DNA of 18,619 nucleotides from Nitrospinota bacterium (GCA_036231405.1 JAZAHK010000035.1:1-18619); one strand, 5' to 3'; positions 2,375 to 18,619 are shown, counted from the stretch's first letter. Numbers and translations are program-made. Notes: generated from the letters alone by a model not told the origin.

Positions 2375-3457
2375 ATGCAGAGGTTAAGATTTGTACGCGT
2401 ATGTAGTTTCTCCTACCTGCTTATAATCTCTTTTTTTGTCCATCTTTTTGTACTTTTCTCTTCCAGTATTTTTTTAAATTTTTCTAAAATATTAAATAAG
2501 AATCCAAAAACTTATCGTTTCGTTTCTGTGAATTGGCTAGAAAACGAGGATGTTAAGTCTTTTAAAAAAGATAAAAAGATTCTCTCTAATATAGATAGAA
2601 ACGAAAAAGGATTCTTTGTAAAAGATAAAAAGATTGAAGTTAAGAAATTTTCAAGGCAATCTAGCAAGGGAATCATTCAAACCCCAAGCGTAATTCCGCT
2701 GGGAATAAAAAGGAAGAAGAGAGTGCAATTAGGTACAATAAAGAAAGAGGGTACGCTCCAAAAAAGTAGAATGGATTTCAGGAAAAATTTTTCGATTGGA
2801 AATACTAAATCTAAAAGGTCTAGAAAATTTATAGTGCCGATAGAAAAAAATCAGAAAAAAAACAGCAATTTAATATCTAAGAAAGAGTCTGTCAGTATTG
2901 GGAGAGGCACTCCAAAAAGAGAGGTGGATTCAAGAAAGGTATCTCGTGAATTACTTGACAGACGTGTTGTAAAACCTTCAAAAAAAACAGATCGATTGAA
3001 ATTATTTAGAATAGTGACAAAGGAGAAGAAGTCTTTTGAAGTGTCTGAAAATGTTTTAAATAAGGTAGCGAGTGCGGACTTTGATTCTGAAAAAAAAATG
3101 AAGGATGATGAACCTATTTCGCTATCAACGAGGAAAACGGAGTTTTTCAGATACTTTAAACATATCAAGGTCAGAATAGAAGAATCTTGGGTTTGGTGGG
3201 CGCCGGAGGCCAGGGGGTTACATGGAAAATTGAAACTTCGTTTTACACTGTTGAGGGATGGTAGCTTAAAAAAACTTGTTCTATTAGAATCTTCAGGACA
3301 TGGAGTATTGGATGACGAAGCGATGTCTGCCGTTACTAGAGCATCAGTTTCTTTTAGGCCGTTCCCTTTAAAAATGAAGCGAAAGTTTTTGAATATTGAT
3401 GGTACTTTTGAGTATGTGTCTGAAAGATTTTTTGTTAGAAAATTTTTAAGAAATTAG
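2375..3457 (+). CDS. TonB family energy transducer protein
   Basis: N-terminal transmembrane helix with SxxxH (SFFVH), a long Lys/Arg-rich linker, and a C-terminal TonB_C-like domain (YFKHIKVRIEESW...G.LKLRFTLLRDGSL...LLESSGHGVLDDEAMSAV...PFP). Confidence 0.85.
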   Translation: MQRLRFVRVCSFSYLLIISFFVHLFVLFSSSIFLNFSKILNKNPKTYRFVSVNWLENEDVKSFKKDKKILSNIDRNEKGFFVKDKKIEVKKFSRQSSKGIIQTPSVIPLGIKRKKRVQLGTIKKEGTLQKSRMDFRKNFSIGNTKSKRSRKFIVPIEKNQKKNSNLISKKESVSIGRGTPKREVDSRKVSRELLDRRVVKPSKKTDRLKLFRIVTKEKKSFEVSENVLNKVASADFDSEKKMKDDEPISLSTRKTEFFRYFKHIKVRIEESWVWWAPEARGLHGKLKLRFTLLRDGSLKKLVLLESSGHGVLDDEAMSAVTRASVSFRPFPLKMKRKFLNIDGTFEYVSERFFVRKFLRN

Positions 3458-3518: not shown

Positions 3519-4184
3519 TTGATTCAAGAAAATAATTTTTTTAGCAATCGTACAGAAGATTATTTGAAAAATATTTTCAAATTAGAGCAGAGTTGCTCGC
3601 CAGTTAAAACAAGTTCAATCGCAACTAAAATGCAACTCTCTTCTGCTTCTGTAACTGGAATGTTGAAAAAATTACATAGAATGAAGTTAGTTGTATATAA
3701 ACCCTACCAAGGAGTCACTCTTACGAAAAAGGGAGAGAAAGTCGCCCTTGAAATAATTAGACATCATAGATTGATTGAACTTTTTTTGAATCAGAAAATG
3801 GGAATAGATTGGGACAAAGTTGATATAGAAGCTGAAAAGCTTGAACATGTTTTGAGTGAAGAGTTAGAGGAAGTTTTGGATAAGAGTTTAGGGTTTCCTA
3901 CGTTGGACCCTCATGGAGATCCCATTCCTTCAAAAGGAGGTAGTATTAAGAAATTGAGCGAAAAGAAATTGTTTGAAATTGAAGAAGGGAAGGAAACTTC
4001 TGTAATTCGAGTAGGGCAAGATAACAATAAAATCCTAAAGTATTTAGGTGAGATAGGACTAATTCCAGGTGTTTCTGTAGAAATTTTAGAAAAATCTGTC
4101 AATGCTGATACAATTACAATTTCTGTTAATGGTATTTCGCATACTTTTAGTAACTCTGTAGGGTCTTCGGTTTTTGTAAGTTGA
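3519..4184 (+). CDS. DtxR/MntR family metal-dependent transcriptional regulator with C-terminal FeoA/SH3-like domain
   Basis: EDYLKNIF, SSASVTGMLKKL (HTH), HHRLIELFL, EAEKLEH and PTLDPHGDPIP motifs; FeoA-like YLGEIGLIPG; TTG start after AGGGG. Confidence 0.95.
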   Translation: MIQENNFFSNRTEDYLKNIFKLEQSCSPVKTSSIATKMQLSSASVTGMLKKLHRMKLVVYKPYQGVTLTKKGEKVALEIIRHHRLIELFLNQKMGIDWDKVDIEAEKLEHVLSEELEEVLDKSLGFPTLDPHGDPIPSKGGSIKKLSEKKLFEIEEGKETSVIRVGQDNNKILKYLGEIGLIPGVSVEILEKSVNADTITISVNGISHTFSNSVGSSVFVS

Positions 4185-4209: not shown

Positions 4210-4725
4210 ATGAGTGCAAGTACAGGGGTGAACAGGAGGAAGATAAAATTTGCAAATAAATTTAAAGCAATACATGATAAAGAAATGCGATGGGAAGAGA
4301 GTGCTGCGGTTAAGTTGTTGACTTTGCCCAAGGGGTTAAAGGTTAAGATATTCAACCACGATCCTATAATGAAACGAATAGATATGAAGGTTAAGTTTCC
4401 TCCCGGCTATGTTGAACCTGAGCATACACACAAAAGCTGGCACTCTATACTCGTGACTAAAGGTAGAATGTGTGTTGCAGGAAAGGATCTTCGTCCTGGT
4501 GATTATGTATTTGGATGGGACCTACCTCATGGTCCTTATGAGTACCCAGATGGATGTGAAGTTTTCTGTGTTTTTATGGGAGATGGAACGCAGCATACTT
4601 GGGATGAAGAAAAACATTTCGTCCACGAAGTTGAGTGGAGCGCAAAGACTAGTTCTGGCAAAAAAGCTGTTGCAAAGGGCGTAACTTCTAGAAGTAAAAA
4701 ACTAGAAAAAATAAGAAAAAAATGA
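4210..4725 (+). CDS. Cupin domain protein with predicted 4-His metal site
   Basis: Cupin motif 1 G-x5-HTH-x3-H-x6-G and motif 2 GDYVFGWDLPHGP; strong SD TAAGGAG. Confidence 0.8.
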   Translation: MSASTGVNRRKIKFANKFKAIHDKEMRWEESAAVKLLTLPKGLKVKIFNHDPIMKRIDMKVKFPPGYVEPEHTHKSWHSILVTKGRMCVAGKDLRPGDYVFGWDLPHGPYEYPDGCEVFCVFMGDGTQHTWDEEKHFVHEVEWSAKTSSGKKAVAKGVTSRSKKLEKIRKK

Positions 4726-7656: not shown

Positions 7657-9909
7657 ATGCCACAATTAGATTATATTGGTACTTCCCCAACTAAAAGCGA
7701 TGCTCTCGTTAAGGCCGTTGGTGATACAATTTATGGTGATGATTTTCACCTCCCTGGCGAACTTTATGGAAAGGTTGTTCGTGCTACAGTTACTCCTGCT
7801 CGTATAAAAAAAATCGACAAAAAAAAAGCACTTTCTATACCTGGAGTTCATTGCGTTGTTACAGCAGAGGATATCCCTGGTGTGAATGCAGGCAGATATG
7901 CTGATTTCCCATTGTTAGTAGAAAATCTAGTTGTGGACATAGGGGATCCTATCGTCCTTATTGCAGCTGAAAGCCAAGACATTGCAGAGGAGGCTGCTAA
8001 AGCAGTTAAAATAAAATATGAAATATTACCTGGTTCCTACGATTTTAGAGATTTAAAAAATGGAAAAGTTGTCTGTGATTGGAAAACGCTAAAAACCCCC
8101 GATAATTCGAAAAATGTAAACATAGATAAAATTATCCAAAGTGCTGATGTTGTTGTCAGGAACACCTACACTTCGTCATGTGTTGATCCTTCTTTTATTG
8201 AACCTGAAGGCGGCCTGGCTTGGGTGGACGAAAGTGGTTTAGTTAATATTCGAGTTCCTACACAAGAAATAGAGAACTACAGAAGAGTGGCAAGTGCACT
8301 AGGGCTTCCAGCGAGCAAGGTTCGTTATGATTGTCCAATGCTTGGTGGTGCTTTTGGCGGAAAAGAACACCCTCAATTAGGATTTTTTCTGGCTCTTTTG
8401 GCCTTGAAAACTGGGCGTCCAGTGAGGATGGCCTATTCACGTGAAGAAAATATTAATTCTGCCAGTAAAAAACACCCATTTGAAATGCATTATACAACTG
8501 CCGCAAATAGAAATGGTACACTCGTTGCGATTGATGTTGATATTTTGGGAGATGCGGGTGCATACATCTCAAATAGTAAGGGTCTCTTGTTAGGAGCGTT
8601 GTGCGTTAGTGGTGGTCCATATCATTTCCCATATGGGAGAGGTCGAGCTAGAGCAATACAGACAAACAATCCCTTTACCGAGTCTATGCGTGGAGTTGGC
8701 GCGAATCAAGTATGTTTTGCTTACGAATCTCAAATGGATGAGTTGGCAGTAAAATTGAATATGGATCCAGTAGAATTTCGCATGAAAAATATAATTAAAA
8801 AGGGACAGACCTTGATGCAGAATCAACCTGTTCCAAGTCGCGTAATGCTTCCTGAGCTGTTCGAATCTGTTACCGAAAAGATTGATAAAAAGAAAAAATC
8901 AAGAACACGCGTTGTTGTTTCTGCTCCGTGGGTTAGGGGTTTTGGAATTGTTTCAAATATAGCTGGTTACGGAAGACCTCTTAATGCTGGAGATGCGTTT
9001 CTTTCTATAGATGACGACGGCAGCGTTCAACTCCGTGCGGGGGCTTGCGATGTTGGTGCTGGACAAACTCAAACGCTTTGCCAAATTGCTTCTGAGGCTC
9101 TAGGTATTCCACTGTCTAAAATTTCCCCTATTTTGGCAGATACCCATGTTACCCCTCTAGCGGGTGTTACAGCAGGTAGTAGGCAAACTATGGTTTCTGG
9201 AGGTGCTATTTTTGAAGCAGGTGTTCAACTACGGAAAAGACTTTTAAATGCCGCGTCAGATTTACTTGAAGTTTCAGCTGAAGATTTGGAAATTCGCGAT
9301 GATTCTATTTTTGTCATGGGGATTCCCGAAAAAAAAGTAGAGATTGTAGATGCGGTTAAAAAATGTAACGGGATGAATATCCCATTGCATGCAACTGGGA
9401 ATGTGAAGTTTGGTCACCATAAGTATAAAGGAAACGAGATTTATGGTGCTGCAGGTGGTTGGTTGGATTACGTTTTTGGAGTGCACGCTGCAGAGGTAAA
9501 AGTGAATACCGATACAGGAGAAGTACAAGTTTTAAATTATTGGTCAGGTCACGATGTTGGACAGGCAATAAACGTTCAACACGTTGAAGGGCAGTTTGAA
9601 GGTGGTACAATGATGGGCATTGGTCATGGGCTTATGGAAGAGATTTTACTAGAAAATGGAAAGCTTCTAACTGATCATTTCGAAAGTTATCTAATTCCCA
9701 CTGCTTCAGAAACTCCAGAGTGGGAGAATATTATTTTGGAATCTAAGGAAGGACTCGGTCCTTATGGAGCAAAAGGGATAGGTGAACCTCCTTGCACAGC
9801 CGGCGCAGCTGCTATTGCTTGTGCTGTAAGTGATGCGATAGGAAAGCGTGTTAAAAAAATTCCTGTTACACCGGTTCATGTACTTGAAGTTCTAGGAAAA
9901 ATAAAATAG
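7657..9909 (+). CDS. Xanthine dehydrogenase family molybdopterin-binding (large) subunit
   Basis: IPGVHCVVTAEDIPG, GGAFGGK, DAGAY, MRGVGANQ..FAYESQMD, DVGAG, DVGQAIN...VEGQFEGG and GPYGAKGIGEPP (catalytic Glu) motifs; 750 aa. Confidence 0.95.
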   Translation: MPQLDYIGTSPTKSDALVKAVGDTIYGDDFHLPGELYGKVVRATVTPARIKKIDKKKALSIPGVHCVVTAEDIPGVNAGRYADFPLLVENLVVDIGDPIVLIAAESQDIAEEAAKAVKIKYEILPGSYDFRDLKNGKVVCDWKTLKTPDNSKNVNIDKIIQSADVVVRNTYTSSCVDPSFIEPEGGLAWVDESGLVNIRVPTQEIENYRRVASALGLPASKVRYDCPMLGGAFGGKEHPQLGFFLALLALKTGRPVRMAYSREENINSASKKHPFEMHYTTAANRNGTLVAIDVDILGDAGAYISNSKGLLLGALCVSGGPYHFPYGRGRARAIQTNNPFTESMRGVGANQVCFAYESQMDELAVKLNMDPVEFRMKNIIKKGQTLMQNQPVPSRVMLPELFESVTEKIDKKKKSRTRVVVSAPWVRGFGIVSNIAGYGRPLNAGDAFLSIDDDGSVQLRAGACDVGAGQTQTLCQIASEALGIPLSKISPILADTHVTPLAGVTAGSRQTMVSGGAIFEAGVQLRKRLLNAASDLLEVSAEDLEIRDDSIFVMGIPEKKVEIVDAVKKCNGMNIPLHATGNVKFGHHKYKGNEIYGAAGGWLDYVFGVHAAEVKVNTDTGEVQVLNYWSGHDVGQAINVQHVEGQFEGGTMMGIGHGLMEEILLENGKLLTDHFESYLIPTASETPEWENIILESKEGLGPYGAKGIGEPPCTAGAAAIACAVSDAIGKRVKKIPVTPVHVLEVLGKIK

Positions 9910-9923
9910 TTTTTTAAAACTTT

Positions 9924-10406
9924 TTATATTTCTTCAAATTCTGCAGTATGCTCCACTTCTATACCTCTCTGAACGCTTTGGCTGGCAGGGCAACCACGGT
10001 CATGAACTTGAAGGGCTCTTTCTGCCTCTTCTTTTGTTCCTTTTGGAATTTTTACAGTATAGTGAATTTTAATTTTTGTTATCAGAGCCATTCCCTCAAC
10101 ATTTTCTATATATCCTTCAACGTGCCCAACTAAATTATCTGGAGAAGTTGAAATTCCGCGCGCTTCCAGCGCACTGCTCATATTTCCTGTTAGTCAACCA
10201 GCAACAGATGCAACAAGATGGTCTAGAGTTGCTGGTCTTTCTTCCACTGGGTCTACTTTATAAAAATTTTTTATACCTCCATGTACCCCGTAAGGAATAG
10301 GAGTATCAGGGAAAGCTTCAAAAAAACCAGTTTTCATAGCCTTGCCAGGTTCTTTAACAATTTTGGCTCTCGAGGTGTGTATAATATTACCTTCTTTTTT
10401 AGACAT
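9924..10406 (-). CDS. OsmC/Ohr-like redox protein, probable selenoprotein (Sec at codon 71, UGA at 10194-10196)
   Basis: ORFs 10194-10406 and 9924-10181 share a frame and join as ...TLDHLVASVAG-[UGA]-LTGN-MSSALEARG..., giving 160 aa. The UGA is at the first OsmC Cys position, the second Cys is in GCPASQSV, and a SECIS-like hairpin follows the UGA. SD GGGAG precedes the ATG at 10406. Confidence 0.88.
10150..10186 (-). promoter_or_regulatory. Putative bacterial SECIS element
   Basis: mRNA after the UGA reads CUAACAG-GAAAU-AUGAGCA-GUGCGCU-GGA-AGCGCGC-GGA-AUUUC. This gives a 7-bp GC-rich upper stem (10158-10174), a G-initiated apical loop 26 nt after the UGA, and a lower GAAAU/AUUUC stem. Confidence 0.75.
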
Positions 10407-10491
10407 TTAAAGTCTCCCTTAGAGTTTTCTGGAAAATCTTAATGTTAATACAAACGAGAAATATATCTGCAAGGAATCAGAAAGGAAATTT

Positions 10492-11118
10492 CTACTTCTC
10501 TTTAGAATTAATGCACAAAACTGCTTTCCAATAATTGAAAACATTCACACGTTCTTGCGCGACTGAAGTTAAATTATTAGATTTTAAAAGAGGTTCTAAA
10601 TCGAGAGTTGTTTCCCATCCAATCTTTTTGCAAGCTCCGTTAATTAGTTCTTCAAATTTAGCTAGAAGAAAATTCTGGCTCTTGAAGTGGTTTATAAAGA
10701 CAATTCTTCCATCTGGTTTGCAAACTCGACATATTTCTGAAACTATTTTTTGTGGGTCTGGTGCGGCACTAACAACGTAGCAAGCGGTAACACAATCAAA
10801 AGTATTATCTGGAAAATCCATTTCTTCTGCGTTCATTACTGAGAGTTGAATATTATCCATATCAAGTTTTTTTATTTTTTCTCTAGCTTTTTCTAACATC
10901 TTTGAGGAAATATCAATACCTACAATTTCAGAAGAATTAGGGTATAAGGGCAAAGAAAGGCCTGTTCCAACTCCTACTTCAAGTAGGCGTTCGTCGGATT
11001 CGAGTTGTAAAAGTTCCACTCCAACACTTCTCCCCTCATTAAATATTTTTTTGAAGACTATGTCGTAAAATTTCCCCCATCGGTCATAAATCTTCTCTGT
11101 TGTGTATTGACTATCCAA
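10492..11118 (-). CDS. Class I SAM-dependent methyltransferase, PmtA-like (phosphatidylethanolamine N-methyltransferase type)
   Basis: YDRWGKFYDIVF, LEVGVGTGLSLPLY, GIDISSKML, YVVSAAPDP and RVCKPDGRIVFINHF motifs resemble Rhodobacter-type PmtA. TTG start after AAGGA. Substrate is inferred. Confidence 0.8.
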   Translation of the reverse strand: MDSQYTTEKIYDRWGKFYDIVFKKIFNEGRSVGVELLQLESDERLLEVGVGTGLSLPLYPNSSEIVGIDISSKMLEKAREKIKKLDMDNIQLSVMNAEEMDFPDNTFDCVTACYVVSAAPDPQKIVSEICRVCKPDGRIVFINHFKSQNFLLAKFEELINGACKKIGWETTLDLEPLLKSNNLTSVAQERVNVFNYWKAVLCINSKEK

Positions 11119-11344
11119 AGCCTAATTCCTTGAGATTAAAATTCACTAAAACATCCGTAAAAATTATCTTATACTCGGATAAATTTCAAGCAAAATTTAT
11201 TTTGTATTTCTAATTGTTCTACTAAGTTTTGATTCGTATTAAATTGTTATAAAATGTTTTTGCTGTTTTGTTTTTAATAGTAGTTTTATAGAATGACGAA
11301 TTTGCCCGCCTTATATATTTCTCGAATTTTACAGGAATCTATCA

Positions 11345-12274
11345 TTGCATCATCTTTTTGTTCTAAAATTCTGTGTTGGTCTTTTCCTGATTACAAAGGG
11401 TGCTGGTTGGTTCACAGATGCATCTGTGTCTATTGCAAATAAAATGAAAGTTCCAAAGGTAGTAATCGGGGCAACATTAGTGAGTATTTTTACAACTCTT
11501 CCTGAATTTTCTGTTTCTTTTCTTGCTTCTGTAAGGGGGCAACCTGACACCTCTCTTGGTAATGCGGTAGGTTCAGTAATTTGTAATCTGGGTTTAGTTT
11601 TATCTGTTGCGGCAATTATAAGTCCTGTTTCTATCACGAGAGAAATTAAGGGTAAAAGTGTTCTTATGTTCGTAATAGGTATTTTTTTGTTTTCGGTTTC
11701 TTACTTTTTTGGTTATGGTTTTATAAATAGGACTTTTGGTATCGTTCTTTTATTGATTGCGATTTTGTATCTAATTTTTTCTTCTTTAGGGGAAAATTCA
11801 GAGGAGTGTTCTAACGAATATGAACAAGGTTTGTCTAAAACTATTTTATTTTTTGCCCTCGGTGGTTCGTTTGTTTTAATCGGAAGTTCCCTCGTTGTTA
11901 GTAATGTAATTCCGATTGCAAGATATATAGGTGTCCCTGAGATAATTGTCGCTTTGACATTGGTTGCAATCGGCACATCTTTGCCAGAATTGGTCATGGC
12001 TGTTGTGTCTTCGATAAAAGGACATAGTGGGATTGCTCTTGGTAACGTAGTTGGCGCAAATATTTTGAATTTAACGTGGGTTATTGGATCAGCGGCTCTT
12101 TATAGCGCTTTGAAGATAGATACACAAACCTTTCTTTTTGATTTTCCAATTATGATTTTGTTCATGGGTTTGTTTTTGCTTTTTATTTTATTACAAAAAA
12201 ACATAAAAGTTTATTCAGGTTTGTTTCTGTTGGCGTTTTATATCTTTTATGTGGTCGTTTCCTTTTTTTGTTAG
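11345..12274 (+). CDS. Calcium/sodium antiporter (CaCA superfamily, YrbG-like)
   Basis: Two alpha-repeats, TTLPEF...GNAVGSVICN and GTSLPEL...GNVVGANILN, and about 10 hydrophobic helices. Confidence 0.93.
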   Translation: MHHLFVLKFCVGLFLITKGAGWFTDASVSIANKMKVPKVVIGATLVSIFTTLPEFSVSFLASVRGQPDTSLGNAVGSVICNLGLVLSVAAIISPVSITREIKGKSVLMFVIGIFLFSVSYFFGYGFINRTFGIVLLLIAILYLIFSSLGENSEECSNEYEQGLSKTILFFALGGSFVLIGSSLVVSNVIPIARYIGVPEIIVALTLVAIGTSLPELVMAVVSSIKGHSGIALGNVVGANILNLTWVIGSAALYSALKIDTQTFLFDFPIMILFMGLFLLFILLQKNIKVYSGLFLLAFYIFYVVVSFFC

Positions 12275-18016: not shown

Positions 18017-18092
18017 GCTGGCGTAGCTCAGTTGGTAGAGCAGCTGATTTGTAATCAGCAGGTCGGAGGTTCAAGTCCTCTCGCCAGCTCCA
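18017..18092 (+). tRNA. tRNA-Thr(UGU)
   Basis: 76 nt; acceptor GCTGGCG/CGCCAGC; anticodon arm GCTGA-TTTGTAA-TCAGC; GGTTCAAGTCC T-arm; encoded CCA. Confidence 0.98.
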
Positions 18093-18113
18093 TGGAAAAA
18101 TTAGTTTTTATTA

Positions 18114-18198
18114 GGGGAGGTTCCCGAGTGGTCAAAGGGATCAGACTGTAAATCTGACGGCTAAGCCTTCGGAGGTTCAAATCCTCCCCTCCCCACCA
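18114..18198 (+). tRNA. tRNA-Tyr(GUA)
   Basis: 85 nt; acceptor GGGGAGG/CCTCCCC; anticodon arm TCAGA-CTGTAAA-TCTGA; long variable arm GGC-TAA-GCC; encoded CCA. Confidence 0.98.
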
Positions 18199-18210
18199 AA
18201 ATTTTAAGGT

Positions 18211-18286
18211 GCGGGAATAGCTCAATTGGTAGAGCATCAGCCTTCCAAGCTGAGGGTCGCGGGTTCGAATCCCGTTTCCCGCTCCA
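18211..18286 (+). tRNA. tRNA-Gly(UCC)
   Basis: 76 nt; acceptor GCGGGAA/TTCCCGC; anticodon arm TCAGC-CTTCCAA-GCTGA; GGTTCGAATCC T-arm; encoded CCA. Confidence 0.98.
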
Positions 18287-18336
18287 AATTTTGTTATGGA
18301 AGTTGTAAACTGGATTTTGATGAAATGTTGTTGAAT

Positions 18337-18412
18337 GCCCACGTAGCTCAGCCGGCAGAGCGCTTCCATGGTAAGGAAGAGGTCATCGGTTCAATCCCGG
18401 TCGTGGGCTCCA
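18337..18412 (+). tRNA. tRNA-Thr(GGU)
   Basis: 76 nt; acceptor GCCCACG/CGTGGGC; anticodon arm CTTCC-ATGGTAA-GGAAG; encoded CCA. Confidence 0.97.
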
Positions 18413-18505: not shown

Positions 18506-18619
18506 ATGGCTAAGGCGAAGTTTGAGCGTACGAAACCACATGTGAATGTAGGAACGATTGGTCACGTTGATCATGGGAAGACGACCTTGACGGCGGCTAT
18601 TACCAAGCATTTGTCTGAT
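18506..18619 (+). CDS. tuf: Elongation factor Tu (5' part, runs off the window; absent from the ORF track)
   Basis: Translates as [44 protein letters not shown] upstream; follows the Thr-Tyr-Gly-Thr tRNA cluster as in the classic tufB operon. Confidence 0.99.

Follow-up and report, generated by a model that had tools for sequence, protein, structure and literature searches.

OsmC of Escherichia coli and of Thermus thermophilus are Cys-based hydroperoxide reductases, and in the Ohr/OsmC enzymes a catalytic Arg and Glu activate the peroxidatic residue. In E. coli OsmC we take this residue to be Cys59, with the partner Cys acting as the resolving one. Selenocysteine (Sec)-containing relatives have been in print since 2005, when three OsmC-like selenoprotein sequences of COG1765, with the motif UxxT, were reported from the Sargasso Sea (PMC1088965); a preliminary description of the locus studied here also called them a reported class. 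They were found again in GOS in 2008 (PMC2398784) and in an Olavius symbiont data set (PMC1976440), and the main texts of reviews from 2022 and 2026 give a single OsmC-like form, UxxT (PMC9312934, PMC13188914). As far as these main texts go, the attributes of the published family are COG1765/YhfA, PF02566 and the motif UxxT (PMC1088965, PMC2398784, PMC9312934, PMC13188914). It is represented by the NCBIfam model NF041052, which has a cut-off of 95 bits.

The window, that is, the whole stretch of 18,619 nucleotides of Nitrospinota DNA that was analysed, carries on its minus strand a gene for a protein of the same fold. The features needed for what follows are these:

9924..10406, minus: CDS of the OsmC-fold selenoprotein, 160 codons plus TAA stop, with U71 and C139
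10194..10196, minus: UGA, codon 71, almost certainly a Sec codon, aligned with the Cys59 column of E. coli OsmC
10158..10174, minus: SECIS-like hairpin GUGCGCU-GGA-AGCGCGC, starting 19 nt after the UGA, in the S-A-L-E-A-R codons
9990..9992, minus: codon TGC of C139, the sole Cys of the protein, in the second conserved Cys column, G-C-P motif
10414..10418, minus: Shine-Dalgarno-like GGGAG, 7 nt 5' of the ATG at 10406, as read from the sequence
10492..11118, minus: SAM-dependent methyltransferase (Pfam Methyltransf_11), 5' of the selenoprotein gene and on the same strand
7657..9909, plus: molybdenum hydroxylase large subunit (xanthine dehydrogenase/aldehyde oxidase family), convergent

The minus-strand frame from 10406 to 9924 contains the run GCT GGT TGA CTA ACA GGA AAT ATG AGC, and translation from the ATG at 10406 gives, around codon 71, VASVAG-TGA-LTGNMSSALEARG. 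Under translation table 11 the region is listed as two open reading frames (ORFs), 10194..10406 (70 aa) and 9924..10181 (85 aa, from M76). Read-through of the TGA joins them into a protein of 160 aa that ends at a TAA stop (9924-9926), as had been proposed. C139 lies in the context HDRGCPASQSV and the 160-aa protein has no other Cys. A promoter/terminator scan of 9700-11400 showed no excess of sites over shuffled sequence (3 against 4.6 expected and 1 against 0.9 expected, respectively), so it leaves co-transcription with the methyltransferase gene as no more than a possibility.

Relation to described OsmC-type proteins

The earlier assignment of the read-through product to the OsmC/Ohr-like proteins is borne out by both its sequence and its predicted structure. 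The Pfam OsmC domain (PF02566) matches residues 58-153, across the TGA, with 54.2 bits (cut-off 27.5; E 2.1e-14), and an AlphaFold2 model built from a 40-sequence alignment is confident throughout (pLDDT 96.3, pTM 0.88). Searched with Foldseek, this model finds OsmC and Ohr structures over ~150-160 columns with E ~1e-9, the best matches being E. coli OsmC (1NYE/1QWI), Ta0195 (2ONF) and T. thermophilus OsmC (1UKK). When the sequences are aligned, Cys59 of E. coli OsmC (1QWI) and the corresponding Cys of 1UKK fall in the column of U71, and the Cys of the G-C-P-V-S motif of both structures falls in that of C139. The UGA therefore occupies the position of the first catalytic Cys and the only Cys of the protein that of the second, which is how the preliminary description had placed them.

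The similarity to the two OsmC enzymes is one of fold (1QWI, 1NYE and 1UKK: Foldseek E 1.4e-9 to 5.9e-9, TMq 0.63-0.70, ~153 columns) rather than of close sequence. Cys59 is replaced by Sec, no more than 18-20% of the residues are identical, the window protein has a longer N-terminal region with a Y-G-x-H-G-G motif that is conserved in its subfamily, and it scores 27.4 bits against the OsmC subfamily model TIGR03562, for which the cut-off is 85.8. The Ohr proteins (1N2F, 1ZB9, and 6EBG with dihydrolipoamide bound) have the same fold and two-Cys layout, and their lipoyl-dependent reduction offers a model for the reductant of the window protein. However, the similarity to Ohr is weaker than that to OsmC, with 18.6 bits against TIGR03561 (cut-off 88.85) and a Foldseek identity of 12-16%.

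The published UxxT family and the window protein have the superfamily fold in common. In both, Sec takes over from the first conserved Cys, which belongs to the central helix, the second position is still a Cys, and the SECIS lies within the coding region. Beyond this the two differ. The window protein scores only 21 bits against NF041052 (cut-off 95) and is not among the genome-wide matches to that model. Its motif is A-G-U-L-T-G, with U-M-M-G in distant orthologues, whereas that of the published family is UxxT, and its closest curated relative is the OsmC-proper subfamily and not YhfA. The genome also encodes five OsmC-like paralogues of the UxxT type:

C46:89580-89999, plus: UxxT OsmC-like paralogue, one in-frame TGA, GFULLTQ
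C12:2605-3036, plus: UxxT OsmC-like paralogue, one in-frame TGA, GFULLTQ
C3:161247-161675, minus: UxxT OsmC-like paralogue, one in-frame TGA, GFULLTQ
C15:9486-9908, minus: UxxT OsmC-like paralogue, one in-frame TGA, GFULLTQ
C16:25954-26379, minus: UxxT OsmC-like paralogue, one in-frame TGA, GFULLTQ

Each of these scores 138-167 bits against NF041052 (cut-off 95) and they are 43-63% identical to one another; the window protein, in contrast, has no significant BLASTP similarity to any of them (best E 0.006). Together with the window gene they account for all six PF02566 matches in the 2.1-Mb genome, so that every such match is a selenoprotein. Judged by its sequence, the window gene falls outside the published UxxT family. 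Its way of working is that of a known kind, in which Sec replaces the first catalytic Cys of the OsmC fold, but the branch is a different one.

It is possible, though rather less likely than not, that this is a second, as yet uncatalogued Sec branch of OsmC-proper type, and that the marine Nitrospinaceae have moved their whole OsmC-class peroxide defence to selenium. The traits that we propose for such a branch are the motif A-G-U-[LM]-[TM]-G, the N-terminal Y-G-x-H-G-G and a SECIS placed in the A-L-[ED]-A-R codons. The Sec form would be the only form found across the Nitrospinota, recurring in Desulfobacterota and Nitrospirota beside peroxide-defence genes. The main texts found by a literature search hold only the UxxT form, and the word 'OsmC' is absent from the main text of BSepDB (PMC13326102); the supplementary family lists of BSepDB and of the reviews may already hold the branch.

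Active site and gene neighbourhood

By analogy with the OsmC and Ohr enzymes, the protein is probably a Sec/Cys hydroperoxide reductase. U71 would lie on the long central helix at the peroxidatic position, with C139 at the resolving position. In the proposed cycle, the selenolate would reduce a hydroperoxide (ROOH to ROH) and become a selenenic acid, which would then condense with C139 to give a selenenylsulfide. A dithiol reductant, perhaps a lipoyl protein or a thioredoxin-type system as in Ohr/OsmC, would regenerate the enzyme. What the data show directly is one reading frame, the fold, the Sec column, the Cys homologues, the conserved hairpin and the Sec machinery; that Sec is inserted, that the protein reduces peroxides, which reductant it uses and that it forms a dimer are things that we infer. 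Nine residues before U71 lies D62, which at least 90% of the aligned homologues conserve and where OsmC also has an acidic residue. The homologue alignment has no invariant Arg that could serve as the catalytic Arg of OsmC/Ohr, position 42 being mostly His and sometimes Arg.

The genes beside the orthologues in two other lineages point towards peroxide defence. In Desulfobacterales, a rubrerythrin gene begins 24 nt after the orthologue, with a flavodoxin gene next in line, in six of the six loci with enough flanking sequence, and a pyridine-nucleotide disulfide oxidoreductase lies upstream of it in the same loci. In a Nitrospirota locus (L064:2354-6626), a di-haem cytochrome c peroxidase, a DUF488 protein, the Sec-containing OsmC protein, MsrA and a class-I pyridine-nucleotide disulfide oxidoreductase are encoded on one strand. 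The DUF488 ORF of this locus overlaps the start of the Sec-OsmC gene by ~35 nt.

The Nitrospinaceae have a different set of neighbours, namely the methyltransferase, an EamA transporter and the molybdenum hydroxylase, with no obvious peroxide-defence gene among them. By tblastn, the methyltransferase lies 5' of the gene in all 25 near loci (20/20 in L020-L039 and 5/5 in L052-L056), and at comparable identity it was found in none of the 21 distant loci. In some Nitrospinaceae genera the EamA transporter gene is located between the methyltransferase and selenoprotein genes. The molybdenum hydroxylase gene and the selenoprotein gene have their 3' ends 15 nt apart, and the gene upstream of the hydroxylase gene encodes a GFO/IDH/MocA oxidoreductase; no gene for a small Fe-S or FAD subunit was noted beside it. 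Members of the genus share this gene order, but outside the genus the synteny is patchy, and for this reason a selenium link to the hydroxylase (7657-9909) was dropped.

These neighbours bear on the main alternative for function, which is that the OsmC-fold selenoprotein is not a peroxidase and instead serves in the reduction of disulfides, persulfides or selenosulfides, or in the handling of sulfur or selenium. In the Nitrospinaceae the methyltransferase and EamA exporter encoded next to it might have a part in such a role, the former being syntenic in 25/25 near loci and the latter inserted between the two genes in some genera. It would also fit that the protein reaches the cut-off of no curated OsmC or Ohr peroxiredoxin subfamily, as would the lack of an invariant Arg in the homologue alignment and the N-terminal Y-G-x-H-G-G that is the subfamily's own. 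However, the methyltransferase synteny is confined to a family-level clade and may simply reflect inertia, OsmC and Ohr structures are the best fold matches, and genes for peroxide and oxidative-damage defence flank the orthologue in two other lineages. In addition, both OsmC catalytic columns are kept, and two homologues, P0131 and P0147, have lost both together. We consider a non-peroxidase role unlikely, though worth keeping in mind. Since both the fold and the peroxide-defence neighbours in two other lineages argue for it, a Sec/Cys hydroperoxide reductase seems to us more likely than some other redox function of the selenol/thiol pair. The joint proposal, that UGA71 is decoded as Sec and that the protein is a hydroperoxide reductase, is in our view likely, with considerable room for doubt.

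Decoding of codon 71

If the TGA is a Sec codon, homologues should carry either TGA or Cys at position 71, as the preliminary description had anticipated, and this is largely what we observed. A read-through search of related genomes gave 32 matches in 31 of 41 genomes, at 50-99% identity, and each of the 32 has exactly one TGA. In a set covering the phylum, which overlaps with these 41 genomes and contains kin that are not independent, 47 of 51 genomes had matches, 48 in total and each with one TGA; none of the 51 genomes yielded a Cys form of the gene. The TGA is in the same column in 31/31 loci where the site was located, out of 32. The second copy in one genome (L045, in G025) is the remaining locus and is counted through the one TGA of its search match, and L044 is cut by a contig end. 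A scan of species-representative genomes yielded 26 loci, the nearest of which are titled uncultured Nitrospinaceae MAGs; three of the loci (L052-L054) have the same protein and post-UGA sequences as L021-L023 and are not counted as independent. Of the 26, 21 are distant loci at 41-46% identity, and all 21 have TGA at the Sec column, as read from tblastn coordinates. These come from Desulfobacterales, other Deltaproteobacteria, Deferrimicrobiaceae, Nitrospirota and one MAG labelled Limnocylindria, and some are pairs from one MAG.

The Cys counterparts were found in protein databases. An exhaustive search of 1.84 billion representative proteins gave 341 at E <=0.001, and among the aligned full-length homologues 35 of 39 have Cys at the Sec column. 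Nearly invariant residues in the alignment are G40, D62, C71, G74, L80, G98 and C139, the last being at least 90% conserved; P0131 and P0147, mentioned above, are without the first Cys and without the second. Among 75 site-spanning database proteins the column holds 60 C, 4 R, 3 W, 3 S, 2 G, 1 A, 1 D and 1 gap, and close Cys forms of the window protein are represented by P0003 and P0042.

A further mark of bacterial Sec decoding is a signal in the mRNA. Starting 19 nt after the UGA, the sequence GUGCGCU-GGA-AGCGCGC (10174-10158) can form a hairpin with a 7-bp stem and a GGA loop, of -10.7 kcal/mol on its own, and it is found in 31/31 orthologues. The codons that make up this hairpin are under unusual constraint. 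Over 84 aligned codons in 31 unique orthologues, the only positions with a single codon are the TGA itself, GCG at +8, CTG at +9 and GCG at +11. Codon +12 is CGC in 20 orthologues and CGT in 11, so that G-C or G-U pairing is kept, and the loop codon +10 (GAN) is free to vary. In the same 31 sequences, 3-5 different codons are in use at each of the other invariant Gly, Pro, Ala, Thr, Leu and Val positions. The stem codons are also rare in this genome of 36.8% G+C, with GCG making up 12.6% of Ala codons, CTG 5.9% of Leu codons and CGC 4.8% of Arg codons. Comparable hairpins occur only 39 times in 2.09 Mb, which corresponds to ~4e-4 expected per 22-nt window.

In the distant clade, where other residues are encoded, a different hairpin, CUGGCCA-CGGUGC-UGGCCGG, is found at a similar distance from the UGA; its loop contains GGU, and one locus (L067) shows a compensatory change from G-C to C-G in it. 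Within the near clade there is no double compensatory change in the stem, only invariance and the G-C/G-U wobble. Folding of the whole 71 nt after the UGA is no better than that of shuffled sequences (z = 0.00; 95/200 shuffles fold at least as well), and the case for the hairpin therefore rests on synonymous constraint, codon rarity and genomic rarity, not on total folding energy. An Rfam scan of 9800-10600 (E up to 10) gave only chance-level matches of snoRNA type and nothing SECIS-like. This says little, because to our knowledge Rfam has no general bacterial SECIS model. We propose that this G+C-rich hairpin, lying within the coding sequence at 10158-10174 and 19 nt past the UGA, would recruit SelB with Sec-tRNA(Sec), and that the ribosome would then insert Sec at UGA71 and avoid termination.

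In some orthologues (L047-L051, L043, L034 and L037) the terminal stop is also TGA. The two TGAs are ~90 codons apart and the hairpin follows the first only. Since both occur in the same gene, they must be read differently.

The preliminary description had noted that Sec machinery would have to be sought outside the window. Indeed, all four components are present elsewhere in the genome, which is 92% complete. SelA (491.6 bits; C6:38813-39904, plus), SelB (391.8 bits; C6:40842-42728, plus) and SelD (334.7 bits; C3:154791-155753, minus) all score above their curated cut-offs, and selB lies ~1 kb 3' of selA on the same contig and strand. The selD gene has one in-frame TGA itself. A tRNA-Sec scores 75 bits in Rfam, above cut-off, and is called SeC with anticodon tca by ARAGORN. 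A second SelD-like match, of 92.6 bits and below cut-off, is found ~6 kb 3' of selB (C6:48793-49554, plus).

A reading of UGA71 as a standard amino acid such as Trp, Cys or Arg, whether by near-cognate decoding or through a variant code, might draw on the homologues with Trp (P0004, P0041, P0092) or Arg (P0005, P0069, P0073, P0151) at the column. These residues could stem from gene calling under a TGA=W code, from variants in sequencing or from genuine TGG/CGA substitutions. However, TGA serves as an ordinary stop in 208 of the 1040 ORFs of at least 300 aa in the genome, so a variant genetic code is not the explanation. The complete Sec machinery and the synonymous constraint on the hairpin also argue against such decoding, as does the fact that Cys, the usual counterpart of Sec, holds the column in 60/75 homologues. 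We regard it as very improbable. Taken together, the conserved TGA, the Cys homologues, the synonymously frozen hairpin and the presence of selA, selB, selD and tRNA-Sec(UCA) lead us to conclude that TGA71 almost certainly encodes selenocysteine. Our confidence that this is a true selenoprotein gene is very high at the least.

The sequences on either side of the TGA evolve as parts of one gene. Among the 31 orthologues, mean pairwise differences at codon positions 1, 2 and 3 are 0.17, 0.15 and 0.54 on the 5' side and 0.21, 0.16 and 0.49 on the 3' side. This third-position divergence shows that the same frame is under purifying selection both before and after the TGA, in line with the two-sided conservation expected of a read-through protein in the preliminary description. 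That description had also named a read error as a possible source of the TGA. In public contigs assembled independently the TGA is unchanged, both in X1 (from a DNA run) and in X17 (from an RNA library), and 13/14 and 14/14 of the respective differences within the coding sequence fall at third codon positions. Contigs from two RNA libraries, X17 and X19, overlap portions of the gene, that of X17 running across the TGA; they are used here as contigs and not as evidence of expression, and no meaning attaches to uncovered stretches. That the TGA is a true stop, whether in a pseudogene, between two small genes or through an assembly error, would agree with the split made there by gene callers (33 N-terminal and 53 C-terminal fragments among 185 retrieved proteins) and in the table-11 ORF list, but it is scarcely credible in view of a TGA kept in 48/48 phylum matches, in 21/21 distant loci and in independent contigs, purifying selection on one frame on both sides, and a single OsmC domain and single confident fold across the site.

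Annotation and other features of the window

The minus-strand sequence 9924-10406 is a real selenoprotein gene that standard annotation has mis-split. Such splitting had been predicted, and it is plainly visible in the databases: the 33 N-terminal fragments end at the site and the 53 C-terminal ones begin just after it, so that 86 of the 185 retrieved proteins are fragments, one example being an 89-aa record named 'OsmC family protein'. Such a pattern is typical of gene callers that end a gene at a Sec codon. NF041052, the curated model for these selenoproteins, misses the gene, which is widespread, and a dedicated profile would restore it in Nitrospinota, Desulfobacterota and Nitrospirota. 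According to the main text of BSepDB, Nitrospinota MAGs are among the ten bacteria richest in selenoprotein genes (PMC13326102). The present gene adds to a picture in which the marine nitrite-oxidising Nitrospinaceae rely heavily on selenium in their redox defence. Furthermore, the window protein and a Cys form such as P0003 or P0042 make up a natural Sec/Cys pair with which to ask what selenium buys an OsmC-type peroxidase.

A few other features of the window may be recorded. A tRNA cluster (Thr-Tyr-Gly-Thr) is located at 18017-18412 on the plus strand. It is followed by the start of a translational GTPase gene (18542-18607, plus), which runs up to the window end and matches the first 22 positions of the SelB model with 22.8 bits; this gene is probably tuf. 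Towards the other end of the window, a DtxR-type iron-dependent repressor with a C-terminal FeoA domain is encoded at 3519-4184 (plus), adjoining genes for a TonB-C protein (2375-3457) and a ChrR-like cupin (4210-4725).
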